From the IMG/VR virus record IMGVR_UViG_3300042090_003221, positions 51,812 through 115,811 of that record: a stretch of DNA of 64,000 nucleotides; one strand, 5' to 3'. Under the pieces are notes generated by a model, which was not told where the DNA came from, made no database searches, and worked only from the letters and a program-made list of their open reading frames with translations. The DNA comes from a virus. Each line of letters opens with the position of its first letter. Position 1 is the first letter of the stretch. Below, one piece after another: positions 500 through 51,986 of the stretch. The position numbers were made by a program, and so were the translations under genes.

Positions 500-528
500 T
501 TGACAAACAGGACAAAAAGTCCTAACAT
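500..528 (+). promoter_or_regulatory. Sigma70-type promoter with an embedded palindromic operator
   Basis: TTGACA (500-505), 17 nt, TAACAT (523-528); inverted repeat AGGAC-AAAAA-GTCCT at 509-523. Confidence 0.75.
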
Positions 529-564
529 TCCCCGTACGGGGTTTTACGCAAAAGGACGGAACCG

Positions 565-1011
565 GTGACCCCAACCCTGATCGAGACCGAAGCCTTTGTC
601 CGCCGCCTGTTCTTCGGCGTCGTCGACAAGGCCGGGGAGCCTTACGTCGAGCATTGCGTCCGCGTCATGGAGGGTCTGCCCGCGGCCGCGACGGACGACG
701 AGCGCCACGCCGCGCTCTTGCATGATGTCCTCGAGGACACGGACCTGACCGCGCGCGACCTGCACTTGAGCGGCTACAGCGAGCGGACGGTCTGGCTTGT
801 CCAGCGCTTGACGAAGTGGAAAGGCGCCGACTATGGCGCCTACGTCGCCGCGATCACAGCCTCGCGCGACGCCGGCCTGATCGCCATCAAGCGCGCCGAC
901 CTAAAGGATAATTCCGACCCGGCGAGGCTCGCGTTGCTGCCGGCGCGCGAGCGCGAGCGGCTCGCGGCGAAATATGCGTCGGCGCGGGAGATCTTGGAGG
1001 CATGGAAGTGA
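565..1011 (+). CDS. HD-domain small alarmone hydrolase (SAH, Mesh1/SpoT-hydrolase-like)
   Basis: Motifs DKAGEPYVEHCVRV, AALLHDVLEDT, LTK, IKRADLKDN. Confidence 0.88.
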   Translation: MTPTLIETEAFVRRLFFGVVDKAGEPYVEHCVRVMEGLPAAATDDERHAALLHDVLEDTDLTARDLHLSGYSERTVWLVQRLTKWKGADYGAYVAAITASRDAGLIAIKRADLKDNSDPARLALLPARERERLAAKYASAREILEAWK

Positions 1012-1310
1012 AAACCTCGCACCCGGTAGACGGGCGGACGCTGAGGCGCACGCGCCCGCTGCCTCATGACCCCGCGCTGCGCAAGAGGGCGAGAAAGTTC
1101 TCGGCTCTCCTCAAGGTGCTCGATATGTCCCAGACGCAAGTCGGGCGGTTCCTCGACTTGGACGGGCGCACGGTGCGCCGCTGGGCGTCCGGCGACAGGC
1201 CGATTCCGATCGCCGTCGAGATCGTCCTGACCTACATGGCGAGGAATGGCCTGACGCCGAAGGAGATCCTCGCCGCCTGCAAGATCAAGCGACAGCTGGA
1301 CGTGAGATGA
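1002..1310 (+). CDS. XRE-like HTH transcriptional regulator
   Basis: LDMSQTQVGRFLDLDGRTVRRWASGDRPIP helix-turn-helix. Confidence 0.8.
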   Translation: MEVKTSHPVDGRTLRRTRPLPHDPALRKRARKFSALLKVLDMSQTQVGRFLDLDGRTVRRWASGDRPIPIAVEIVLTYMARNGLTPKEILAACKIKRQLDVR

Positions 1311-1341
1311 GCAGGTTCCTACCGAAGAAAAGGAGACTGAA

Positions 1342-1566
1342 ATGCAATTCAAGATCACGAACTACTGCGACCTCGACGGGGTGCCCGCCGTAGTCGCGAC
1401 GCTGGACACGCCGAAGGGACTCGGAACCTACTGCTTCGAATACGTCGAGGGCCGGTGGCGGGAGCCGGAAGACAACGGCGCCGACGTCATGAGCAAGTCC
1501 CGGGTCGTGACCCAGGACGTCTTCGAGCGCATGTTCCCTGACGTCGGCCTCCCGACGGCGCCGTAA
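1342..1566 (+). CDS. Small acidic protein, candidate antitoxin, convergent on the SAS gene
   Basis: Strong RBS (aaggag); stop codon 1 nt from the stop of the 1568-5194 gene. Confidence 0.65.
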   Translation: MQFKITNYCDLDGVPAVVATLDTPKGLGTYCFEYVEGRWREPEDNGADVMSKSRVVTQDVFERMFPDVGLPTAP

Positions 1567-1567
1567 A

Positions 1568-4500
1568 TCAGGCGACGTTCGGTCGGAAGATCGAATGCCA
1601 AGCCGGATCGAGCTTGTCCTGAACGCCCTTGTAAAGCGCGCTCATCTTGTTGGACAGCTCGGTCCGGGCGACCGGATCCTTTGACTTCTGCCATTCCTGA
1701 TACATATCGTGGCCGCCTTGCTTTTCCTTGGCGTCGAGCATGCCGGGCGCCCACATTTGGACCTCGCCGATCTGGCCGCTCTTGAAGCGCACCATCACCT
1801 TGCGGTCGAAATAGCCCTCTGGCGTCTTCGTCCAGCCCTCGTCGGCGACTTCGAAGTGACGCGCGAGCTGGCGCACCACCTTGTCGCTCTGGTCGGGCAT
1901 CGGGGTGTCGAAGCCGCCGCGCACCGCGTCGTTGACCTCCTGAACGGTCTTGCCGCGCTCGAGCTTCTCCATGATGCGATCGGTCTTCTTGACGCCCGGA
2001 TCCTTCCACTTGAGCCCGATGTCCTGGGCGGCCGCGGCGCAGACGTCGGCGAGCGCCTTCTGATTTTCGGGCGACATCGCGATGAGCTTGTTGACGTCCG
2101 ACGGCGCGGACTTGCGCCAGAGGTTCTTGCGCTCCGACGCCCATTCGGGGCCGTGCGCCTTCAGGCCGGGGCGGTAGGGGCGCGCCTCGGCGACCGCGGG
2201 CGCCGCAGGAGCCGCAGGAGCTGCAGGAGCTGCAGCGGGTTTTGCGGCCGCTGGCGCGGCGGGCTTGGCCGCCTGGGCGGGGGCGGGCTTTGCCGCGGCC
2301 GTTGGCGTCGGCTTCGCGGCGGGGCCGCCAGCGGGCTTCCCTACGGCTTTGGACACGTCAGCCTTCGAGGGCATGGGCTGGTAGCCGGAATGGCCGGTGA
2401 AAATCATGGGGCGGCCCTTGGCGTCTTTCGGCGGCGTGATGGCCTTTTCGCCGCCCTTGGCCTTCGACGCGGGCTTGGCCTCCGACTTGCCGCCCTTGGC
2501 CGGCTTCGCTTTCGCGCCGCCGCCGCCGGATCCGAACTGCCCGGCGTTGCCCGGCTGGCCGCGCTTGTGCTTGCCTTCGTCCCATTTGCCGGCATCGAGC
2601 GCGAGGGCGCGCAGGCCGCGGCGGAGCGGGTCGGCGTCCATCGCCGGCGCCGGGCAGTCGCGCGCAGGCGCACGCGAGGGCTTGGCGGCCGCGGCGAGCT
2701 TGCGCAGGCCGGCGGCGATAGGGCAGGCGTCCATAGCGGCGTCCTTGGCTTTGGGGCGGGCTGCAGGCTTATTTTCTATCGGCGAGACGTTGTATTCAGC
2801 GCCGCCGCGGGCGAATCCTTGCTTCTCGCGCTCGGTCGGGACGTAGGGCTTGCCGGTGCTCGCGTCGATCGGGCCTCCGCCAGATTTAGGGGAGGCCGCT
2901 CCGAATTTAGCCAGTGTTCCCTCGATCTGGCGCTGCAGGTCCGGGCTCTTGCCGTGAACGTGGCCGAGCGCTTGCTGAAGCGCGTCAATGGTCGCCTTGC
3001 GGTCGCCCTTGGCGTTAAACTCGCGCGCCGCGTTGATCGCTGTGTGAGCCGCGACCTCGTGCTGCGGCAAAGGCTTGTCGAGATCGCTCTCGGCGGGCTT
3101 GGCGGGGGAGGGGGAGGCCGCAGCGAGCTTTTCCGGATCGCCACGGCTAAGCCGATCAACAATACCGTGCATGCCGGCGTTCTTCAGCGCCTCAATCGAG
3201 CCGTGCTGCTTCAGGGCCTCGTAGTCTTTGTCGGTCGGCGCTGGCAAATTCGGCGCGCCGGTGATTTGCTGGCGGCCGAGCGACCCCTCCTTGTTCTGCA
3301 TGCGTTGGATATCGGCCCACTCGTGCCCGAAGATCTTCCCGCCGTCGTGGTGATCTTTCGGCGGCGTAGCCGGCTTACGCGCTGTGGCGGGAGCCTTGAA
3401 CTCGGCGGGCTTGGCGGCGGTGCTGCGGTTCGCGCGCGACCACTCTTGTACCGCGTCAACTTGGCTGCGGCCCTTGGCGCGTTCCTGACGGACGTAGTCT
3501 TGCACGCTCATGGACGTCGGCGAACCGCCCGCGGTAGCCTCGGGCTTGGCCGCAGGTTCCTTGGGGTCCTGCGACCCGACCGCCTGCGTCTTGCGCAGCT
3601 GGTGACCGCGCTCGCCGCCGGCGCCCTCCGGGGCGGCTTCGAAGGTGTGCTCGCCGTTCGACCACTGCGGCAACCGGCTGTGTTCGACCGGGTTGAAGCC
3701 GTTTGCCTTCATGTGCGCGTCGAGCTTGGCGAAATGGTCCTTGTCGGAGAAGGAGGCTTGCGACTTGTGGCTCTCGATCGCGCCGCCTTCGCCCGCGACC
3801 CTGCGGTAGCCGAGGCCGCCGAGCTTCAGGCCGGCGCCCTTGCCCTCAGCCGGCTTGCCCTTGGCCGACTGTGAGAACTTCGCGGCCCAGGCGACGTCTG
3901 GATTTCCGGCCGGTTCTTGAGCCGGGGCGGCGTTGCCGGACGCGCCGGCCGCCTCCTTCGGCGGGTCGACCTTCTGGACCTCCCACTTGCCGCTGCCCGA
4001 TCGCTTGTCCGCGTCGCGCTCGGCCGCGGCTTTGTTCACGCTCCAGCCGACGACGTGACCCGCCGGCTGCTCGCCACCTTGGCTGACGACGGCGTAAAGC
4101 GGCTGAGGCTTCGCGCCGCGCTCGGCTTGGCCTGCCCAGAACTTGCGCATCAGGTCGTTGGGTTTAGCCGGCACGCCAGTGCTGGCGCTGGCGGGCTTGG
4201 CGGCTTTGGCGGCGCCCTTGGCCAGGGCGGGGTCGTCGCTGCCGCGCATCTGCTCGTCGAGCAAGGCCTTCTTGTTCTTCAGCGTGGCGTAGCTCTCGCC
4301 GCCGAGCTTTTCGATCTCGGCGTTGGCCTTCGCGTAGTCGCTGAAGTGCTTGTCGCCCTTCGCGCGCGCGGCCCGCGTCGGGCTTCTGATCGCGGCCTCA
4401 TAGGCGCTGTAGGCCTCATGGGCACGGCGCGTTGCGTTTGCGAGATCCTTATCCACGTTGCGCCCGCCCGCGCGCATGGCCTCTTTCTCGGCGTTGCGGG

Positions 4501-5194
4501 CGGCGACGAACTCCTGTTCCAGGGCCTTCATTTCCGGCCCGTTCATCTTCTCGTCGTGGCGCTTGCCGTTCGCGCGCATCGCCTCTTCGTGCATCTTCTC
4601 GGCGGCGGCGACGTCTTTCGTCCGCGTCATGTGCTCGTGCGCTTTGGCGTAAGCCGCCTTGTCGGCCTCGTCGCGCTCCTTGAAGTGCTTGGCGGAGAGC
4701 TCGGAGATCGCGTTCTTGATCTCGTGCGAGGGGCGGGGCGCCTTCGGCTTCGGCTTGTCGCTCAGATGCTCGGAGCCCGGGCCGGAGAACGCGGCGTGCG
4801 CGCTCGTGCGCGAGTTCGCGCGGCCCTTGCCGGCGCCGCGCGCCTCGCCGATCGGCTTCCCGTTGAACTTGCCGCCCATGCCGCCCTTGATCTCGCCGTT
4901 CTCGCCGATCAGGACCGGTGTCCCGGGGCCGTTCGCGTTCGGGTGGACGGTGATCCACTTGTCGGCATCCATCGCGAGCCGCGCGAGGCCGCGCCGCACC
5001 GCTGTATCAAGCGCCATCGTTCCGTCGCCCGCCATCTCTTCCCCCGCGTCATCGTTGTCCGGATAATCGTCCCAGCCGCCGGTCGCGGTGAGCATCTTGT
5101 CGGTGTCGCCGGCGTCCGGGTTGCTGAACTCTTCCTCGGAGATCTCCGGCAGCTCGTAATTCGGGTCTTTCGGGACCGGCATGAGCTTACGCAT
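1568..5194 (-). CDS. Large modular head-cargo-like protein with a C-terminal RelA/SpoT synthetase (toxSAS-like) domain
   Basis: C-terminal VKKTDRIMEK / NDAVR / GYFD / GEVQ / AK..GHDMY; N-terminal LAMDADKWITVH module; internal WDEGKHKRGQPGNAGQF. Start moved to ATG 5194, coupled to the upstream stop. Confidence 0.8.
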   Translation of the reverse strand: MRKLMPVPKDPNYELPEISEEEFSNPDAGDTDKMLTATGGWDDYPDNDDAGEEMAGDGTMALDTAVRRGLARLAMDADKWITVHPNANGPGTPVLIGENGEIKGGMGGKFNGKPIGEARGAGKGRANSRTSAHAAFSGPGSEHLSDKPKPKAPRPSHEIKNAISELSAKHFKERDEADKAAYAKAHEHMTRTKDVAAAEKMHEEAMRANGKRHDEKMNGPEMKALEQEFVAARNAEKEAMRAGGRNVDKDLANATRRAHEAYSAYEAAIRSPTRAARAKGDKHFSDYAKANAEIEKLGGESYATLKNKKALLDEQMRGSDDPALAKGAAKAAKPASASTGVPAKPNDLMRKFWAGQAERGAKPQPLYAVVSQGGEQPAGHVVGWSVNKAAAERDADKRSGSGKWEVQKVDPPKEAAGASGNAAPAQEPAGNPDVAWAAKFSQSAKGKPAEGKGAGLKLGGLGYRRVAGEGGAIESHKSQASFSDKDHFAKLDAHMKANGFNPVEHSRLPQWSNGEHTFEAAPEGAGGERGHQLRKTQAVGSQDPKEPAAKPEATAGGSPTSMSVQDYVRQERAKGRSQVDAVQEWSRANRSTAAKPAEFKAPATARKPATPPKDHHDGGKIFGHEWADIQRMQNKEGSLGRQQITGAPNLPAPTDKDYEALKQHGSIEALKNAGMHGIVDRLSRGDPEKLAAASPSPAKPAESDLDKPLPQHEVAAHTAINAAREFNAKGDRKATIDALQQALGHVHGKSPDLQRQIEGTLAKFGAASPKSGGGPIDASTGKPYVPTEREKQGFARGGAEYNVSPIENKPAARPKAKDAAMDACPIAAGLRKLAAAAKPSRAPARDCPAPAMDADPLRRGLRALALDAGKWDEGKHKRGQPGNAGQFGSGGGGAKAKPAKGGKSEAKPASKAKGGEKAITPPKDAKGRPMIFTGHSGYQPMPSKADVSKAVGKPAGGPAAKPTPTAAAKPAPAQAAKPAAPAAAKPAAAPAAPAAPAAPAVAEARPYRPGLKAHGPEWASERKNLWRKSAPSDVNKLIAMSPENQKALADVCAAAAQDIGLKWKDPGVKKTDRIMEKLERGKTVQEVNDAVRGGFDTPMPDQSDKVVRQLARHFEVADEGWTKTPEGYFDRKVMVRFKSGQIGEVQMWAPGMLDAKEKQGGHDMYQEWQKSKDPVARTELSNKMSALYKGVQDKLDPAWHSIFRPNVA

Positions 5195-6800
5195 GGTCGC
5201 GCCCCTTGTGATCGAACAGCCAGTCGACATGATCTTCGAGCTCTTTCGGCAACGTGCCGCGCTTGTATTCCGGCGACGTTACCAGCGCGGCGAGCTCCGC
5301 GTCGGTTTCTTTGATGTTCGTCGTCGCGTATTCACTGATATTCTCGCGGATCCACTTCTGCCGCGTCGTGTAGTCGATATTCAGCTTTTGCAGCACGCCC
5401 ATAAGCCGGTCGGCTGACCGAACGCTCGATCGTAGGCCAAGGGCGTGCGCGAGTTCATGAACAATAGTCGCGCGCGCTTGGTCTTTGCTCGATGCGCTGA
5501 CGGACCAATTCGCCTTTCCCGCAGCGATGCGCGCGTCGTTGGCTTCGGCTTGCCCTTGATTGAATTCGCCCCGCTTCGACGGGCTGATCGAAAAATACCC
5601 GACATCACCCTTGCCGGGCTCATTCCTGTACCATGCATGGCCGCAGGACTTGCCCGTCGAGCCCGCCGCCAAGACGACATGAGCCTTCGACAGCGCCTTC
5701 TTGACGTCGAAGCCGTCGGCTTCCAACTTCGTCAGCGCGTCATTCACTTGCGAGACGATCTCCCGCATGCCCTTCGCCGAGGCGCCGGACTGCGTGATAT
5801 CGATCGGGGTGTGCCCCTTTATGCGGTAGCCCGGGTCGCTTCGCTTGGCCTCAATGATCTTATTGTATTGCTCACGCTTGGCCTTGCCATCTTCGCCGTC
5901 CTTATCCGGGTGTTTATACCACTCGGAGAACGCCTTCTTGTCGTCGCCGTGCTTAACGCCGTTGATGAAACCGAGGCCGAAGCGCTCTTTCATGTAGTCG
6001 TGAATTTCTTTTGGCGTATCTTTGGCAAACGATTTTCCGCCCGTCGATTCAGCCTTTTTCTTAGTCTTGGGCTGATCCTTTTTGGCTTCTTTTTCGAGGC
6101 GCTTAATTTCGCTTTTGTGTTTATTGTAACCAAAAGCGTGGTTGTTCATTTCATTTCGGCGGGTCTTCGCCCAATCCTTCCACGACAAATAAGCCGCATG
6201 GTGCGCGGCCATCGCCTTGCGGTGTTCGTCGAGCGTTTTGGCGTTCTCGCTGAGTTTGTTGGCCTCATCCGACAGATGGGCCTTCTTGACCCTCTCGAAC
6301 TCGTACGCTTCCTTGCTGCCGTAGGGGTGCGGGTTCTTGGCGCGCGGATCGAACGGCGGCGCTTCCGGCGGCTTCGGCGCTTCGGCGGGCTTCGGAAGCG
6401 CGAGCCGCTTCTCCGGTCCAGGGCCGAGCCAAATCGCCGGCGAGTGCTGGCTGGTCGAGCCGGACTTCGCCGCGCTCTTGCTGCTCGGATTGACGAACTT
6501 GCCGTTGAGCTTGCCGCCGGCGCCGCCGATGATCTGCCCTGCGCCGTTGATCAGCGCGGGCTGACCCTTGTTGTCGGGGCCGTTGGGATGGATCGTGATC
6601 CAGTGCTCGGCGTCCATCGCGAGCCCGCGCCAGCCCGCGGCGTCGTGCGCCGCGCCGCCGAAGCCCGTGAGATCGACGATCTCGGACGTCCCGCGGAAGA
6701 CGACGCCGGCGGCGATCTTCGGCGCGGCGTCGGCGGCAAGGCGCGGCTTTCCCAGCGTAGCGGCGAAAGATCGCCAACCGCTTGCGGATGCGTCGGTCAT
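5187..6800 (-). CDS. Modular protein: shared leader and WITIH module plus a C-terminal zincin metallopeptidase
   Basis: TIVHELAHALG ... ISEYATTNIKETDAE; N-terminal GWRSFAA..KPRLAAD, LAMDAEHWITIH. Confidence 0.8.
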   Translation of the reverse strand: MTDASASGWRSFAATLGKPRLAADAAPKIAAGVVFRGTSEIVDLTGFGGAAHDAAGWRGLAMDAEHWITIHPNGPDNKGQPALINGAGQIIGGAGGKLNGKFVNPSSKSAAKSGSTSQHSPAIWLGPGPEKRLALPKPAEAPKPPEAPPFDPRAKNPHPYGSKEAYEFERVKKAHLSDEANKLSENAKTLDEHRKAMAAHHAAYLSWKDWAKTRRNEMNNHAFGYNKHKSEIKRLEKEAKKDQPKTKKKAESTGGKSFAKDTPKEIHDYMKERFGLGFINGVKHGDDKKAFSEWYKHPDKDGEDGKAKREQYNKIIEAKRSDPGYRIKGHTPIDITQSGASAKGMREIVSQVNDALTKLEADGFDVKKALSKAHVVLAAGSTGKSCGHAWYRNEPGKGDVGYFSISPSKRGEFNQGQAEANDARIAAGKANWSVSASSKDQARATIVHELAHALGLRSSVRSADRLMGVLQKLNIDYTTRQKWIRENISEYATTNIKETDAELAALVTSPEYKRGTLPKELEDHVDWLFDHKGRDHA

Positions 6801-6918
6801 GTGTTGAGCTTCCCCTCGAATGATCAAAACTTCGGCCGATGCGTGGCAGAGGCGAAAAACGCCTTTGACTGCCGAGAGTCTGTGTGTGATGCTCCAATCA
6901 ACCAGGGAGCGTTATGTG

Positions 6919-7137
6919 ATGAAATATACCAAACAAGAATTGGACGAAGCAGCTATCTACGACTTAGCGATCGATGCCCGCACTTCGCGGGAGCAGGCAG
7001 AGAACGGCCCGTATTTTCCAGAAATCGGCATTACCCGCGAAAGCTGCATTGCCTACGCTGAAAAGTGCGAGCGCTCCATTGAGAGATACAAAGACGGTGG
7101 GGCGCACGCGTTTGTCTTGGGCAAAGAATCGCTTTAG
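6919..7137 (+). CDS. Small antisense protein, candidate immunity protein
   Basis: RBS agggag and TTGACT about 50 nt upstream; stop overlaps the stop of the 7134-7904 peptidase. Confidence 0.6.
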   Translation: MKYTKQELDEAAIYDLAIDARTSREQAENGPYFPEIGITRESCIAYAEKCERSIERYKDGGAHAFVLGKESL

Positions 7138-7904
7138 GTCTTCCGGGCCGTCTTAATCAGGTCCGACCACATGGCGTCAGCTAATTTCTGCGCGTGGTCG
7201 GAAAACATGCCGGCAGAGGATTTCTTGGTTTCATACGCGACGAAGCTTTCGGCCATGAACTCGAAAATGTTCTCCGCGCCATACGCTGAGGTCTGATTGT
7301 TAACAATGTTCAACGGACCTTTCCCACTATAACCCAGGTGCCCGTAGACGATTTTCCAGAATTTCTTGAAGCCTATCTTGTCTTCTAGTTTCGACGCGAG
7401 CAGGTGCCCGAATTCATGCGTCATGACGCCGCCGACGGAAGGGTCATTCATCATTCCGTCCCATTCCTTGGCGTATTTTTCTAGGCCTTCTTTTGTCCAT
7501 GCTTTAGGACTCAGATTTATGTTGTTTCCGGAGCGATAAGCCAGCGCTCCCTCGCGTTCGTTTTCTTCTACCTTCGGTGACCCCGCCTCCGGATATTTTT
7601 TCGAAAGCTCGGCGACCCTGGAGTGCGCGACGGTCTTATGGTCATTCTTTCCCCGGACCTCGGAAATGTTTTTGCCCGTAAATTTTCCGCCTAGACCGCC
7701 TTTGACTTCGCCGTTAGCGCCGAGCAATACAGGGGATCCGGGGCCTTCTTTGTTGCCGTGAACTGTGATCCACTTCTCGCCAGCATCCATTGCCAGGGCG
7801 CGCCATCCTGCCCGCGCCGCCCTCACCTTGCCGTCCTGCGCAAGGCGCGGCTTCGCTACAGCGGCGGCAAAGCTTCGCCAACCGCTCGCAAGTGCGTCGG
7901 GCAT
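7134..7904 (-). CDS. Modular protein: shared leader and WITVH module plus a zincin metallopeptidase
   Basis: VMTHEFGHLL ... SAYGAENIFEFMAESF; N-terminal GWRSFAA..KPRLAQD, LAMDAGEKWITVH; C-terminal part visibly AT-richer. Confidence 0.8.
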   Translation of the reverse strand: MPDALASGWRSFAAAVAKPRLAQDGKVRAARAGWRALAMDAGEKWITVHGNKEGPGSPVLLGANGEVKGGLGGKFTGKNISEVRGKNDHKTVAHSRVAELSKKYPEAGSPKVEENEREGALAYRSGNNINLSPKAWTKEGLEKYAKEWDGMMNDPSVGGVMTHEFGHLLASKLEDKIGFKKFWKIVYGHLGYSGKGPLNIVNNQTSAYGAENIFEFMAESFVAYETKKSSAGMFSDHAQKLADAMWSDLIKTARKT

Positions 7905-7939
7905 GGTGTAGAGGTTCCCTGTTTCAGGAGGCGGGTCTG

Positions 7940-8293
7940 ATGATCGACGCGGCGACGCTTGCCGAGGCGCTCCAAATTCCGGAGCGGTTCTTGACGGCGA
8001 CGGATTCGGCGCTTGGCGATTTTGTCGAGGCGCTCAATCTCGCTTCAGAGGCCGTGACTGTGGACACGGGGCGCGGCGCGCGCGCAATACTCCGTCCCGA
8101 CGGGAGCCCTGCCGAAGCCGGCGACTTCCGTCAAGGGGAGCGCATTGAGCTCCGCGAATATCAAGTAGGGAATATGGTCGCGAGCTCGACCGCCGGCCCG
8201 GTCTTCTGGAACGACGGCAGCTTCTTTATCGACGGCGGCGGCAACCGGAAACAGCGCCGGGCGGCGCGGTCTTCGCGCGCTGGTACGCGATGA
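7940..8293 (+). CDS. Hypothetical antisense protein
   Basis: AGGAGG RBS before ATG 7940. Confidence 0.55.
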   Translation: MIDAATLAEALQIPERFLTATDSALGDFVEALNLASEAVTVDTGRGARAILRPDGSPAEAGDFRQGERIELREYQVGNMVASSTAGPVFWNDGSFFIDGGGNRKQRRAARSSRAGTR

Positions 8294-28009: not shown

Positions 28010-29899
28010 TCACTCCGCGGCGATCGGGGCGGCGCGGCGGCGCGCGAGCTCGACCAGCGCGGCGCGCCCGATGTGCTCCGCGTAGGCCGGAGGAATCGCC
28101 TCGCTCATCTCCGCGAGAGTCATCCAGTCGATCCCGAGAGCCTCGCTGGCCGCGGCCTTGTGGCCGCCAACCCAGACGTCGCGCGTCCCGCGGCCGCCGG
28201 CGCGCGCCGACCGGCGTCGGGCGTGGCCGCCGTAGACCCCGATCACGGGGCGCGGGTCGCGCGCGCAGACGCATTCGGGTTGCGGGATTGAGAAGCTGGC
28301 CTCGAACAGGCGACGCCGCTGCAGCCGGCAGCCCTGGGCACCGAGGCCGAACATGCAGCCGCAGAGGGTGACCGGGCTCCGCATGCTCCAAGCGGCTTCC
28401 TCGACGTTTTCAATGACCCAGAGGGCTCCGGTGGCCTGGAGCCGTTCGCGCATCGCGTCGATCAGCAAGGGGGCGCCGACAGCGCCCGGCGCGTGGCGCA
28501 TTGCTGAATATCCTTGGCAGTTGTGTACGACGATACCGTCGGCGCAGTAGGTTTCATCCTCATCAACCGAAAGGTTGAAAACCCGCTGCGCAACCGGAGA
28601 CGAAACAACGGATCGAACAAGGCCCCATCCGTGCTGGTCGTCAAACCGAAACGACCTCGCGGTTTTGGAAAACCTTACCTGGAAGTGGGGGCGCTCGCGC
28701 ACGGTTCGCCCCTCGATTTCAGTCGTGCCTATTCCCCCCGGGCGCCTCGGCTCGCTCTTAGTGATCGTCGCGCTAAGCCCGGATTGGTTCAAGAGCATGC
28801 GCACCCCAACGGCGAGGGCGCGGGAAACCGTCGTGAAGCCCGTTACGGCGCCGCCCGTGTAGCGCGGGTCGTTTTTCACGTACCCGTCGGCGAGTTGATA
28901 ACCGTCCAGAAAGGACTGGCGGTATTCGCGGCTCGCGCCGTGAAGCCAAGACGGAATCTTTTTGTTGGCGGCGCCGATGCCGAAATGCTCCTTAAGCCAA
29001 GCACATAGACGCCTTGACCCTGACCTCGCCTTGGCGGAGGTTCGCTCGATTGAAACGCTGCAACGCAAACCTGCCTCAGCCATTAGGGAGCGCAACAATT
29101 CGGCGTCTTGCTGAGCGCCGCAGATCAGCACGTCGTCGCGCGTGACCCATCCGTCTCCAACCCAATAACCGAGGAATTTGGCGAACCCCAGCGTGGCCGC
29201 GTCGGCCGCGGGCGCGCCCCTGACATCAATCATGCCGTCGGAGATTGCGTAGGCGCGCGCCGACGACGCCTCGGCCTCGGTGTCGTAAGAGCCGATGTAG
29301 ACCGTGCGGCTCCCTTTCGAGCCATACGCGCGGTAGCGTTTGACCTTTTCGTCAAAGACGTAGCCGGCCGAGCTTGGCGGAATTGGCGGGACGCTGGCTT
29401 CCGGGACTAAGGCGACGGTCGCCCACCTTTGCCCCTCCATAGCGCCGGCGTCTGTCCACTCAGCCGCGTCGGACAAGCTGACATAACCGTCCGGCGCTCG
29501 CCGGCTCGTTTTCGAGTAGAACGGGTGCTCTGCGGTCGTCGTGAGGCCCCAGTGGCCCTGCCCCTTCAGGGTTACGGTCGGCGACCACGCCGATCCAATT
29601 TGCGTCACCCTTCGCCAGCGCGCGTTGTGCGTGAGGACAAGGTCACCAACCACTACCTGCTCGATCGGCACTTGCCCGCGCGCCGTGAAAATTAGGGTTC
29701 CGGCGGGGAAGCAGGGCGGCGACGCCCACACGAGGTCAAAACCGGAGAAATCGAACTTCAGCGCGTCGGCCTGGACGAACGCGAACGGATAGCGCTTGCG
29801 TGCTTTGATATCGACGCCGACGACGCTGAACCCGGCGCGGTGGAGACCCATTCCGGCGCCGCCGGCACAGGAAAAGAGATCGAGCGCGCGGGGCTTCAC
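28010..29899 (-). CDS. Compact C5-cytosine DNA methyltransferase precursor containing an intein
   Basis: LDLFSCAGG (motif I), SPP|C (IV), IENV (VI), QRRRLF (VIII), EAIPPAY (X); GTG start 29899. Confidence 0.9.
   Translation of the reverse strand: MKPRALDLFSCAGGAGMGLHRAGFSVVGVDIKARKRYPFAFVQADALKFDFSGFDLVWASPPCFPAGTLIFTARGQVPIEQVVVGDLVLTHNARWRRVTQIGSAWSPTVTLKGQGHWGLTTTAEHPFYSKTSRRAPDGYVSLSDAAEWTDAGAMEGQRWATVALVPEASVPPIPPSSAGYVFDEKVKRYRAYGSKGSRTVYIGSYDTEAEASSARAYAISDGMIDVRGAPAADAATLGFAKFLGYWVGDGWVTRDDVLICGAQQDAELLRSLMAEAGLRCSVSIERTSAKARSGSRRLCAWLKEHFGIGAANKKIPSWLHGASREYRQSFLDGYQLADGYVKNDPRYTGGAVTGFTTVSRALAVGVRMLLNQSGLSATITKSEPRRPGGIGTTEIEGRTVRERPHFQVRFSKTARSFRFDDQHGWGLVRSVVSSPVAQRVFNLSVDEDETYCADGIVVHNCQGYSAMRHAPGAVGAPLLIDAMRERLQATGALWVIENVEEAAWSMRSPVTLCGCMFGLGAQGCRLQRRRLFEASFSIPQPECVCARDPRPVIGVYGGHARRRSARAGGRGTRDVWVGGHKAAASEALGIDWMTLAEMSEAIPPAYAEHIGRAALVELARRRAAPIAAE
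28520..29713 (-). mobile_element. 398-aa intein with a LAGLIDADG homing endonuclease
   Basis: Starts CFPAGT; TTAEHPF block B; LGYWVGDG and FLDGYQLADG; ends VFNLSV...VVHN|C. Confidence 0.93.
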
Positions 29900-30168
29900 A
29901 GCGCGCCCCCGAACAGGTCGGGACCTCGCGGCGCCCCCTTGGTCACGACGTTGATGGCGTCCTCGATGACGCCGCGGAAGGCCTCCGGATAGACGGCGAA
30001 GCAATGGGAGCCCCGGCCGCTGGCCTTCGCGCGCAGCTCCTTGGCGGGGAGGCGGCCGTAGCGGTCGACGAAGCGGTCGCGCACCGCGGCGCCGACCGCC
30101 CATGTCAATTTCGGCTCGGGCTCAAGCCCCTTTGCCTTGAAGACGTCAATCACGGTGATGCGGGTCAC
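29896..30168 (-). CDS. Hypothetical protein
   Basis: Coupled at both ends by GTGA overlaps. Confidence 0.55.
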   Translation of the reverse strand: MTRITVIDVFKAKGLEPEPKLTWAVGAAVRDRFVDRYGRLPAKELRAKASGRGSHCFAVYPEAFRGVIEDAINVVTKGAPRGPDLFGGAL

Positions 30169-50002: not shown

Positions 50003-50545
50003 CGACGGAGATGGCGACCGCCATGGGCTACGACGAGGCCGGAAACTGCGCGAAGTTGCTTGCTCGCGTCGACGCTGAGGCGCTTGAGGCGGGCGACTTC
50101 CGGCGCGTCGCCGGCGAGGCGCGGTGTCCGCGCTGCGGCAGCGCCTACCGGCTGCATCCGCCCGTTCAGGGCGCGCTATGGCTCACGCGCGGCTGCGACG
50201 GGCTGGTGAAGCTGTGACAGTCGCCCCTGTCCGCGTCTACGAAGTCCGCGTCGACGACTTCCCGCCATCTCGCTACAGCGCGCGCTCGCGGTCGAAGGCC
50301 CGGTATCAGGCTTGGCTCGACTTCAGCGACACTTGGGGCGGGTCGTTCAAGGACTTCGCCCGCATGACGCGGGTCAGGCTTTCCGCCGACCCGACGCCGC
50401 CACGGCGCGCGTTGATCGCCGGCCGCCCGGGGACAATCGCCGAGGGCTCAAACCGCCATCGCGTCCAGTTCATTTATGACGGCTCCGACGCCGTGAACTA
50501 CACGCACCCGTCCGAGGTCAAACCGCTCGTCGACGAGGCCCAGGC

Positions 50546-50962
50546 ATGACCCGCCCCGAAGGCGCGCCGCCAGCCTTCGTCGACGACGAGGGCTTGCACG
50601 CCTTCATTGCGCCGCACATGACGCACGCAGCGTTTCTGCGCGCCATAGCTGAGCTCGAGCACAGAGGCTTTCCTAAGCCAAACCCGACCTTCAAGGGCCG
50701 CTACATGCCCGCCGTGCGGCGATGGCTGGACGGTCACGCCGGTTTAGGTGCAACTCGGCCGCCCAGCCTAGCGGCAGCGGACGGACAAGAGACGTGGGGA
50801 GACACAAGCGATGCGGTCACAGGCTCCGGGGCTGAAAAGGCGCCGGCGAAAGGACGGGGAGGCGCTCTATTGGAGCGCGGCGGCATTGTCCCCGAAAGAC
50901 GCGAAGCGTTACCCCGACGCCTGGATCCGTTTACCGCAAAACGCCACGCCCGCGGAGATTGA
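50546..50962 (+). CDS. Excisionase-like protein overlapping the integrase
   Basis: GFPKP...GRYMPAVRRWLD, directly upstream of int. Confidence 0.55.
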   Translation: MTRPEGAPPAFVDDEGLHAFIAPHMTHAAFLRAIAELEHRGFPKPNPTFKGRYMPAVRRWLDGHAGLGATRPPSLAAADGQETWGDTSDAVTGSGAEKAPAKGRGGALLERGGIVPERREALPRRLDPFTAKRHARGD

Positions 50963-51986
50963 AGACCTATGTCAGGTCTACGCCGAGCGGTTCGATGCTT
51001 GGCGCGCCATGGGTGACCGACCGCGCTATCTCTACGACGGAACCGTCGGGAGCCTATGCGACGCATTCGAGCGGCACGACGAGAGCCCGATGCGAGACGT
51101 CAAGGCGTCGACCGCGGGCTCTTACAGCGATTCTCTGAAGGTGATCCGCGGGACCGTCGCGGCGCGCGCCGTGCGCGCCGTCACGCCAATCGACGTCAAA
51201 ACATGGTTCCGGAAGTGGAAGGAACCGAAGGAGCCGGGCGGCCCGGAGCGGACCAAGCGCGCGCACGACGCAATTTCGATGCTGCGCCAGATCCTCAACT
51301 TCGGTCGTTCGCTCGGCTATGCCGAATGCGGCGAACTGTCCGAAGGCTTGTCGTCAATGCGCTTCGAACGCTCCGGCCGGCGGACAACGGCAATGACGGT
51401 CGATCACGCCCGGACGTTCATTGCCGCCGCCTTGGCGCGCGGGGACAGCCGCGGTCTTTACATGGCGATCGGCGTTGCGGCGCAATTTGAAACGATCTTG
51501 CGCCAGATAGACGTCATCGGAGAATGGGTCGACGAAGGCGCCCACGAGGTCTGGCGCGGATCTTTTACCTGGGAAGCCATCCCGGGCGGCATTCTGCGCC
51601 TGAAGACCAGCAAGACCGGCTCGCCGATCTCGCACAACCTGACCAAGCTCGAATTGCTTTGGCCGCTTATGCAGGCGGTCCCGCAAGCCGAACGTTTTGG
51701 CGCTGTCGTGAAAGGGGAGGGCGGGCTCCCAATTCGGACCCGCTCTTATCGGAAGTGGTTCGCCGAGATCCGCGATGCCGCTGGCCTGCCGAAAGACCTT
51801 TGGGCGATGGACGCGCGCGCCGGCGCGGTGACCGAAGCGCTTGACATGGGCGCCGACCTGACCGACGTCAGCCGGACCGCGACGCACTCGACCGTGACCA
51901 TGACGCGCCGCTACGACCGCGTCGCCGAGGAGTCGGCGGCGCGTGTAGCTGAGGTCCGCAAGCAGGGCCGGAGCCGCAAGCCATGA
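50811..51986 (+). CDS. int: Tyrosine recombinase / phage integrase
   Basis: ILRQID (R), KTSKT (K), MDARAG (R), ATHS (H), TRRY (Y); next to att. Confidence 0.88.
   Translation: MRSQAPGLKRRRRKDGEALYWSAAALSPKDAKRYPDAWIRLPQNATPAEIEDLCQVYAERFDAWRAMGDRPRYLYDGTVGSLCDAFERHDESPMRDVKASTAGSYSDSLKVIRGTVAARAVRAVTPIDVKTWFRKWKEPKEPGGPERTKRAHDAISMLRQILNFGRSLGYAECGELSEGLSSMRFERSGRRTTAMTVDHARTFIAAALARGDSRGLYMAIGVAAQFETILRQIDVIGEWVDEGAHEVWRGSFTWEAIPGGILRLKTSKTGSPISHNLTKLELLWPLMQAVPQAERFGAVVKGEGGLPIRTRSYRKWFAEIRDAAGLPKDLWAMDARAGAVTEALDMGADLTDVSRTATHSTVTMTRRYDRVAEESAARVAEVRKQGRSRKP

Follow-up and report, generated by a model that had tools for sequence, protein, structure and literature searches.

Does a phage that places a toxin among its head genes also carry the means to survive it? 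This question is raised by the first few kilobases of a 64,000-nucleotide stretch of an IMG/VR provirus (record IMGVR_UViG_3300042090_003221, bases 51812-115811), referred to here as the window. A late-strand gene in this region encodes a protein of 1220 amino acids (aa) that ends in a synthetase domain of the RelA/SpoT homologue (RSH) type, and its 3' end meets an operon of three small open reading frames (ORFs) on the plus strand, here ORF1, ORF2 and orf74 (Table 1). We conclude that the locus is probably a phage head-cargo toxin of the (p)ppApp-forming type faced by a convergent antidote operon, with an Aph1-type hydrolase, a helix-turn-helix (HTH) regulator and an inhibitor as the predicted products of the latter. 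The late-strand protein measures 1220 aa when read from its first ATG (5230); an earlier reading of the window, made from the letters alone and called here the sequence-only reading, had used a Met that gives 1208 aa.

Profile searches, conserved motifs and a predicted structure support the assignment of the C-terminal ~175 residues to an active-looking, toxin-class RSH pyrophosphokinase of the Tas1(Apk1)/EAS clade. When the single domain sequence is searched, Tas1 is already the best solved relative, though a weak one. An exhaustive search gathered 626 representatives of the domain family at E<=1e-3, many of them in proteins of 1000-5000 aa. Compared with the PDB, a profile of 26 family members matched Tas1 (6ox6_A) at E 1.3e-17 over Tas1 residues 243-435 and SaEAS (8vx3) at 1.3e-5, and nothing beyond these two, though chains of CapRel and FaRel2 are present in that database. 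The AlphaFold2 model of the domain, with a predicted local distance difference test (pLDDT) score of 95.8, has 8vx3 (5e-8) and 6ox6 (1.4e-7) as its top Foldseek matches. Structural alignment with VIA-align ranked Tas1 highest (Z 15.2, root-mean-square deviation (rmsd) 2.5, 161 aligned residues), followed by SaEAS (Z 14.5, rmsd 2.6, 167 aligned), the small alarmone synthetases SAS1/2 and RelP (Z 13.2-13.6), CapRel (Z 11.2, rmsd 3.5, 166 aligned) and FaRel2 (Z 7.3, rmsd 4.1, 141 aligned). All top matches in the Foldseek and VIA comparisons are RSH synthetases, with Z falling from 15.2 to 8. The identity to Tas1 is 22%. Six residues (K71, K79, R94, Y130, E146 and Y167 in domain numbering) are invariant in the 26 family members; D91, G129 and Q148 are nearly invariant (at least 90%), and H164 is invariant only in a closer set of nine sequences. 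All ten align with Tas1. The pattern D..R, GY.D, EVQ and AK..H..Y noticed in the sequence-only reading is present (residues 1101/1104, 1139-1142, 1156-1158 and 1167-1177), but its ascription there to enzymes of the PhRel/FaRel2 type is not supported: Tas1 and SaEAS lie structurally above CapRel and FaRel2, and the latter two are not matched by the profile.

The first ORF of the operon had been taken for a small alarmone hydrolase (SAH), and it can be placed more narrowly with Aph1. Its best solved relative is Aph1 (7smg), with E 3.6e-14 over residues 3-142; the next match is at 5e-6, and the hydrolase domains of SpoT and Rel match at 5e-6 or weaker. The family models agree (TIGR00691 hydrolase region, E 7e-11; phrog_990, E 1e-33), and the protein is a single-domain HD hydrolase whose H30, H53-D54 and E57-D58 align with Aph1 and SpoT. 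Aph1 is a (p)ppApp-specific hydrolase of a Bacteroides caccae prophage; its (p)ppApp signature comprises D24, R96, D116, R119, K133 and Y134, and a double mutation of D24 and R119 lets it cleave ppGpp (PMC10083569). ORF1 keeps five of the six signature residues, namely D21, D118, R121, K136 and Y137, which correspond to D24, D116, R119, K133 and Y134 of Aph1. This signature is the strongest pointer to (p)ppApp, rather than tRNA pyrophosphorylation, as the likely output of the toxin.

The last ORF, orf74, has no family and no solved relative: a word-indexed protein search and a scan of viral contigs returned just orf74 itself, and its relatives were recovered solely within loci fetched with the toxin domain, later by a family hidden Markov model (HMM). 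Models of the complex of orf74 with the toxin domain reached ipSAE values of 0.79, 0.78 and 0.80, against 0.00 for the best of three controls. The mark of 0.79 was reached by 58 of 80 solved complexes and by 2 of 110 mismatched pairs, with the counts being rough and our own alignment used. At least 96% of the contacts agree between the runs, and the pLDDT of the partner is at least 89. On the toxin the modelled interface takes in residues 121, 124-128, 130, 163, 167-168 and 170-186; these are the surroundings of syn3 (G1139, Y1140) and syn5 (H1174, Y1177), that is, the acceptor side, on which IapK/Tis1 is reported to act. The models thus make orf74 a plausible protein inhibitor, predicted to bind the acceptor site of the toxin.

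In the mechanism that we propose, the 1220-aa head-cargo protein would enter a cell, where its toxin domain would transfer pyrophosphate from ATP to ATP or ADP; the resulting synthesis of (p)ppApp would drain ATP and block the growth of the entered cell. The Aph1-type hydrolase would break (p)ppApp down and serve as an enzymatic immunity. By capping the acceptor-nucleotide site of the toxin, orf74 would add a structural immunity, as a functional counterpart of IapK/Tis1, and the small HTH protein encoded by ORF2 may act as the regulator of the operon. A hydrolase combined with an inhibitor matches the published bicistronic immunity of Apk2 toxins (PMC10083569, PMC12226406), in keeping with the two layers of immunity that had been suggested from the sequence.

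The anatomy of the operon is as the sequence-only reading described it: a TTGACA-17-TAACAT promoter with a palindrome in its spacer heads three coding ORFs (SAH, HTH and a 74-aa ORF), which converge tail to tail on the synthetase domain. The promoter is the best-scoring one in the first 2.4 kb, where two promoter-like sites are seen against 0.1 expected from shuffles. The G+C content at third codon positions (GC3) of the three ORFs (0.86-0.89) is of the coding type and resembles that of clear genes of the record. ORF1 and ORF2 overlap by 10 nt, and the stop codons of orf74 (1564-1566) and of the toxin protein (1568-1570) are separated by a 1-nt gap. Because the operon has its own sigma-70 promoter on the opposite strand, the supply of antidotes would be independent of late transcription. 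The only terminator-like hairpin of each operon lies inside the last gene of the opposing one (1661-1678 on the plus strand, 1376-1349 on the minus strand), and the opposing transcripts would therefore overlap by ~100-300 nt.

The palindrome in the promoter spacer is a real operator that serves a regulon. As a 5+5 palindrome it is not significant, with three matches at up to one mismatch in the window against 1.24 expected. Its exact sequence, AGGAC-N5-GTCCT, has six copies in the 115.8-kb record, all in a plus-strand block at record 42.4-52.3 kb, and each copy lies 3-5 nt past a TTGAC box with its right arm overlapping the -10 box; in L002 the palindrome gives 10 strand-hits against 0.03 expected. 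The promoter of the antidote operon is the last of these six like promoters, which head an antisense block of 11 kb, and we judge the operator to be regulon-wide, not private, because six identical copies sit on six promoters. The label "probably self-regulated" given earlier to the operon is therefore half right: the operator exists, but the control is shared across the regulon. The product of ORF2 is the sole recognisable DNA binder among 14 ORFs of the block that were scanned (13 of these against Pfam). Its HTH_23 match of 26.4 bits exceeds the cut-off of 24.6, weaker matches being to Xre-like antitoxin HTH and MqsA-type proteins, and it is a candidate regulator. A perfect 12-bp palindrome, CCCCGTACGGGG, lies at the expected transcript start and may form a 5' hairpin or serve as a second operator; none of the other five promoters of the block has it. 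An inverted-repeat search of 440-600 with a seed of 6 reported none, the palindromes there being shorter than the seed or loopless.

Contigs from a wetland metatranscriptome are identical to 547-854 and 973-1792 of the window. The former begins 19 nt past the -10 box, and the latter bridges the HTH gene, orf74 and the 3' end of the toxin gene. These RNA contigs carry neither strand nor level and come from a run selected together with this stretch; parts of the 20 kb that lack RNA-contig cover are uninformative. Expression of the antidote operon in the lysogen is, in our estimate, an evenly balanced proposition.

The antisense position of orf74 at the end of the toxin domain recurs across toxin loci. 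Genes of the orf74 family occur in 16 of 111 toxin loci (the window and 15 others), always on the opposite strand, and the offset of their 3' ends from where the toxin domain stops ranges from -12 to +39 nt. Relatives are found antisense at this end in L202, L203/L204, L205 and L227, and the family HMM adds those in L007-L010, L012, L014, L016, L206, L209 and L212. A homolog of the HTH gene lies directly upstream of the orf74 homolog in L203/L204 and in L227, which represent two distinct sequence types, with overlapping stop and start codons; the cassette of L203 has its own TTGACG ... TATATA promoter. From these comparisons, the HTH gene and orf74 convergent on the toxin domain appear to be the conserved core of the system, and the hydrolase gene an add-on between the promoter and the HTH gene.

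In nine loci, eight of them distinct (L007, L009, L010, which equals L206, L012, L014, L016, L209 and L212), the orf74-like gene is nested wholly within a giant polyvalent-protein ORF, just behind the toxin domain: the toxin-bearing ORF stays open for 100-2055 more codons across the antisense gene, and the sense peptide there is a low-complexity linker. Each nested gene retains an ATG and most have a GGAG-type ribosome site. In L010, L209 and L212 a TTGACx-like box, 17 nt and TACATT are found ~48 nt upstream. Substitutions in the nested genes concentrate at codon position 3, but the third positions of both strands coincide, so the test does not distinguish the coding strand. We tentatively propose, with slightly less than even confidence, that the toxin domain travels together with the orf74-type gene as a single mobile two-strand cassette, in which the antidote has its own promoter and is always read backwards from just behind the toxin domain. 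Inside a polyvalent virion gene the sense frame would read through the antisense strand of the antidote as a linker, and the window would show the free-standing, fully equipped form, in which a regulator and an inhibitor are joined by a (p)ppApp hydrolase. There would then be a function in the antisense orientation: it would uncouple antidote supply from late transcription, and convergent transcription would restrain the expression of the toxin. We found no paper in the literature describing such a two-strand layout of toxin and antisense antidote.

The genes around the toxin bear on its delivery. On the minus strand, terminase, portal, two unknown genes and a free-standing MuF gene are followed by genes for proteins of 256, 546 and 1220 aa; after the last come ~11 kb of plus-strand genes and then, again on the minus strand, prohead protease, major capsid protein and tail sheath. 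The MuF gene is thus upstream of three effectors that share an N-terminal header, and the 1220-aa protein itself has no match to MuF. phrog_25904 matches all three header-bearing proteins. The header, of ~45 residues, occurs in 76 viral loci: in some it forms the N-terminus of proteins encoded next to portal and MuF, often in tandem, and in the others it is fused directly behind a portal domain. A toxin protein that travels in the phage head, as the sequence-only reading had supposed, would fit this arrangement, because the toxin sits among head genes and shares its header with other proteins of the head module. Since orf74 was also found on a 214-kb contig, the element is consistent with integration.

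Several observations weigh against the proposed reading as a (p)ppApp-forming toxin with two cognate antidotes. Pfam and NCBIfam recognise no family in the 1220-aa protein or its pieces, and Pfam RelA_SpoT (PF04607) does not match the whole protein or its last 210 or 410 residues even at E 10. The sequence-only reading, which had announced a RelA/SpoT synthetase domain, had named the lack of a RelA_SpoT hit as the result that would speak against it; the Pfam model is indeed silent, but the profile and the structure contradict this silence and show an RSH synthetase. The syn3 motif of the domain, GYFDRK, differs both from the G-x-N of Tas1/Apk2 and from the S-x-H found in (p)ppGpp synthetases, and because of this the acceptor is not readable from the sequence. 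The Tas1/EAS clade itself holds (p)ppApp-only, promiscuous and (p)ppGpp-only enzymes (PMC12691689). In ORF1 the equivalent of Aph1 R96, a position away from the active site, is Ala. The model of orf74 (pLDDT 77; four strands and two helices) was built from the one sequence, with no alignment, and orf74 showed no resemblance to Tis1 or other solved immunity proteins: the protein and a 10-member profile had no PDB match, Foldseek gave none below E 0.5 and the best VIA Z was 4.1, with a single-sequence model that is maybe too poor for the purpose. The shared RSH synthetase fold, the presence of CapRel and FaRel2 in the structural list and an acceptor left open by the divergent syn3 (DRK) would all allow the domain to be a tRNA 3'-pyrophosphokinase of the PhRel/FaRel2/CapRel type that blocks translation. 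We consider this highly improbable, as the family profile matches Tas1 and SaEAS alone in the PDB, both stand structurally well above CapRel and FaRel2, and the neighbouring hydrolase bears the adenosine-alarmone signature of Aph1, an enzyme type for which repair of pyrophosphorylated tRNA is not obvious. It is somewhat easier to imagine, though still quite unlikely, that, as in some EAS enzymes, the product of the domain is (p)ppGpp or a mixture of both alarmones, and that the hydrolase is broader than Aph1. The mixed membership of the clade, a syn2 motif that reads D-A-V-R as in (p)ppGpp synthetases and the missing sixth residue of the Aph1 signature agree with such a product range; on the other side, both residues that gate the acceptance of ppGpp by Aph1 (D24, R119) are kept, and the closest relative by profile is the ATP-specific Tas1.

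Further points of the same kind concern the hydrolase and the operator. No Aph-like gene was found in 47 viral and 54 metagenome toxin-domain loci within the flanks covered (at most 9 kb on each side), a synthetase is missing next to 70 of 71 viral Aph-like loci, and the operator is common to six promoters, so the HTH protein need not be its binder. Because toxin loci and Aph-like loci are mostly unpaired, the link between hydrolase and toxin comes from their adjacency here and in a few other phages. Instead of acting as an antidote to its own phage's toxin, the hydrolase might accordingly belong to a co-regulated block of ~30 small genes for host takeover or counter-defence and, for instance, clear alarmones made by the host or by defences, with only the HTH protein and orf74 cognate to the toxin; the conserved partner of the toxin is indeed orf74 with or without the HTH gene, never the hydrolase, and the promoter belongs to a six-promoter regulon. 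We regard this as unlikely. The hydrolase gene is translationally coupled to the HTH gene and orf74 through its overlap with ORF2 and lies ~560 bp from the toxin stop, Aph1 enzymes described in the literature can replace one another and confer protection against Apk toxins, and synthetase-hydrolase adjacency recurs elsewhere: related low-GC phages (L167, L168, L171, L173, L175, L178) carry on one strand a header-zincin gene, a gene joining a header-like region to an RSH synthetase, a 110-aa ORF and an SAH-like gene, and in L112 an EAS-like synthetase is directly upstream of an Aph-like gene. Both roles of the hydrolase can also coexist. As for timing, six promoters with one operator overlapping the -10 box are typical of a repressed early block, and late production of the toxin is when immunity matters most. 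It is possible, though on balance doubtful, that the operon is silent in the lysogen, its shared operator being held by a repressor, and is switched on together with the other five promoters upon infection or induction; the antidotes would in that case protect the producing or newly infected cell and not confer superinfection immunity on the lysogen. The RNA contigs on the operon, which come from an environmental sample and carry no strand, level or cell state, speak weakly against such silence, as does the steady low expression that an autoregulating HTH protein inside the operon would give.

Table 1. Features of the toxin-antidote locus and its surroundings (window positions unless a locus is named)
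Feature	Position	Strand	Remarks
Sigma-70-type promoter	500..528	+	-35 TTGACA (500-505), 17-nt spacer, -10 TAACAT (523-528); 10/12 consensus matches
Operator-like palindrome AGGAC-N5-GTCCT	509..523	strandless	in promoter spacer; right arm overlaps -10 box
Perfect 12-bp palindrome CCCCGTACGGGG	530..541	+	at expected transcript start
Aph1-type small alarmone hydrolase (ORF1), 148 aa, predicted enzymatic immunity	565..1011	+	homology to 7smg
Small Xre/homeodomain-like HTH protein (ORF2), 102 aa, candidate regulator	1002..1310	+	HTH_23 26.4 bits
orf74, 74 aa, predicted protein inhibitor of toxin domain	1342..1566	+	GC3 0.89; AAGGAG ribosome site
Late-strand head-cargo effector, 1220 aa	1568..5230	-	header, Ala/Lys/Gly/Pro-rich linker, junction motif, toxin domain
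Tas1/Apk1-EAS-clade RSH synthetase (toxin) domain, residues 1044-1219	1574..2101	-	profile, motifs, predicted structure
syn5 motif of toxin domain	1700-1717	-	
syn4 motif of toxin domain	1751-1768	-	
syn3 motif of toxin domain	1799-1816	-	
syn2 motif of toxin domain	1913-1933	-	
syn1 motif of toxin domain	1961-1996	-	
Junction motif LALDAGKW-x-E-x-x-H-K-R ... G-x-F-G-GGGG	2516..2605	-	ahead of toxin domain
N-terminal header LAMDA-x-KWITVHPN ... GG-x-GGK	4856..4978	-	common to toxin protein and two zincin-like neighbours
Free-standing MuF (head morphogenesis) protein, 289 aa	8574..9443	-	PF04233 E 1.5e-17; phrog_324 E 1e-57
Nested orf74-family gene	L010:9564-9788	-	wholly inside giant polyvalent-protein ORF, antisense, just behind toxin domain

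The reach of the toxin domain depended on the search. A tblastn search of INPHARED cultured phages and PLSDB plasmids gave no match to the domain. In species genomes a single-protein scan gave 0 matches and an alignment scan 3 loci with the domain in metagenome-assembled genomes; in viral contigs the single-protein scan likewise found nothing, and an alignment-based scan was needed. A motif of the form W-x-E-x-x-H-P/K-R ... G-x-F ... GGG precedes the domain in many otherwise unrelated proteins and has the appearance of a junction at which cargo domains recombine or are processed. In L204 (2838-5921, plus strand) a 1027-aa protein consists of a portal, a histidine-phosphatase-like (RHG) region, a W/F-x-E-x-D-H-P-R junction motif and the toxin domain, and homologs of the HTH gene and orf74 lie antisense behind this fusion. 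A second family of antisense ORFs, of 65-69 aa and with the start MRFF, was found in 61 further toxin loci (for example L013:9519-9716, minus strand), where marine phage proteins of ~1090 aa carry the toxin domain and the ORFs end 3 nt inside its end. Substitutions in their antisense frame number 460, 265 and 750 at codon positions 1, 2 and 3 (position 2 < position 1 < position 3), by which coding of this frame is mildly favoured.

The head module offers several further observations. In the low-GC phage L168 (856-8164, plus strand) the portal gene is directly followed by a tandem array of header-bearing cargo proteins, among them a zincin and an RSH synthetase that is accompanied by a small ORF and an SAH-like gene; hosts of very different kinds are thus covered by the header system. 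In the window, a 72-aa ORF on the plus strand (6919-7137) lies between the minus-strand genes at 5187-6827 and 7134-7904 and ends 4 nt inside the stop of the 256-aa HEFGH zincin-like effector, a tail-to-tail geometry like that of orf74 and the toxin. An RNA-library contig (6922-7152) falls exactly on this ORF, which may be a second antisense immunity gene. The G+C content of window positions 5000-8000 is 0.51-0.64, against 0.65-0.72 around them, and the two zincin-like effector genes, whose GC3 is 0.64-0.76, have the look of cargo cassettes gained more recently behind a conserved header. Elsewhere in the window, the 697-aa ORF at 28010-30103 (minus strand) has Hint and LAGLIDADG domains and is an intein-containing gene. 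Just upstream of the window, at record 50060-51433 (L002:18061-19434, plus strand), the antisense block encodes a 457-aa protein with DUF4942 and methyltransferase domains, and PHROG relatives with the same two domains are parts of very large phage proteins.

Phage-carried (p)ppApp-synthetase toxins were recognised only in 2023-2025, and the wider toxin-antidote system was first described in 2019-2025. The locus indicates that this toxin class is not bound to MuF fusions, for here it would ride on a separate head-cargo header beside two other cargo enzymes. An Aph1-type hydrolase antidote is combined with a new, apparently unrelated family of predicted inhibitors, whose antisense position abutting the toxin is conserved from free-standing genes to genes nested in polyvalent ones; standard gene callers would miss the latter. 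The operator that the antidotes share with ~30 other small genes gives a handle on when the phage would need protection from its own injected weapon. The locus thereby makes the role of (p)ppApp-synthetase toxins in phage biology more testable.

Among known systems, the locus is a variant of the published Apk2-IapK-Aph1 kind. Apk2, with IapK (BcTis1) and Aph1, belongs to MuF polymorphic toxins of prophages of Bacteroides caccae, Streptococcus pneumoniae, Mannheimia and Pasteurella (PMC10083569, PMC12226406). Both systems have a prophage head-module protein with a C-terminal Tas1-like pyrophosphokinase and two antidotes, a protein inhibitor and an Aph1-type hydrolase. Unlike Apk2, the toxin here is not fused to MuF, which is a separate gene located two genes upstream, and has a different header, shared with the two zincin-like neighbours; its toxin domain is a separate subfamily, unrecognised by Pfam RelA_SpoT. 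The immunity genes of Apk2 follow the toxin on the same strand, whereas the antidotes here are encoded opposite the toxin, together with an HTH gene and under a promoter of their own, and orf74 has no detectable similarity to Tis1 in sequence, profile and single-sequence-model searches. The type VI effector Tas1 (Apk1) of Pseudomonas aeruginosa (6ox6), with its partner Tis1, provides the closest solved relative of the toxin and the same predicted acceptor-side placement of the inhibitor; it differs in its delivery, by PAAR and the type VI secretion system instead of the phage head proposed here, in its syn3 and syn4 residues and apparently in its immunity family. SaEAS (8vx3), the second-closest relative by profile and structure, likewise is a toxin-class RSH enzyme of a group found on varied delivery domains (PMC12691689). 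EAS genes, however, come without immunity genes and have a broader product range, and the protein described here has no signal peptide.

More distant comparisons place the locus between toxin-antitoxin pairs and virion proteins. As in the toxSAS pairs (FaRel with the SAH ATfaRel, FaRel2, PhRel, CapRel), a toxin of the RSH fold would be neutralised by a small hydrolase or a binding protein, but here a 1220-aa structural-module protein contains the toxin as one of its domains, in place of a free toxin from a bicistronic operon, and the similarity is clearly lower. The tripartite omega-epsilon-zeta system also consists of a regulator, an antitoxin and a toxin, with the regulator and the inhibitor as separate small proteins, as here; its cassette is upstream and co-directional, in contrast to the antisense antidote cassette of the window. 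Relatives of the toxin domain occur in multi-domain virion proteins of 1000-2900 aa, some with ddrB-ParB, resembling the polyvalent proteins of phages and conjugative elements (Iyer et al. 2017, PMC5512222), whereas the cargo here is a single-effector protein. What the locus adds to the Apk2-IapK-Aph1 kind is a toxin subfamily, a non-MuF header, an antisense and separately promoted antidote operon with an HTH gene, and a predicted inhibitor family with a conserved antisense geometry.

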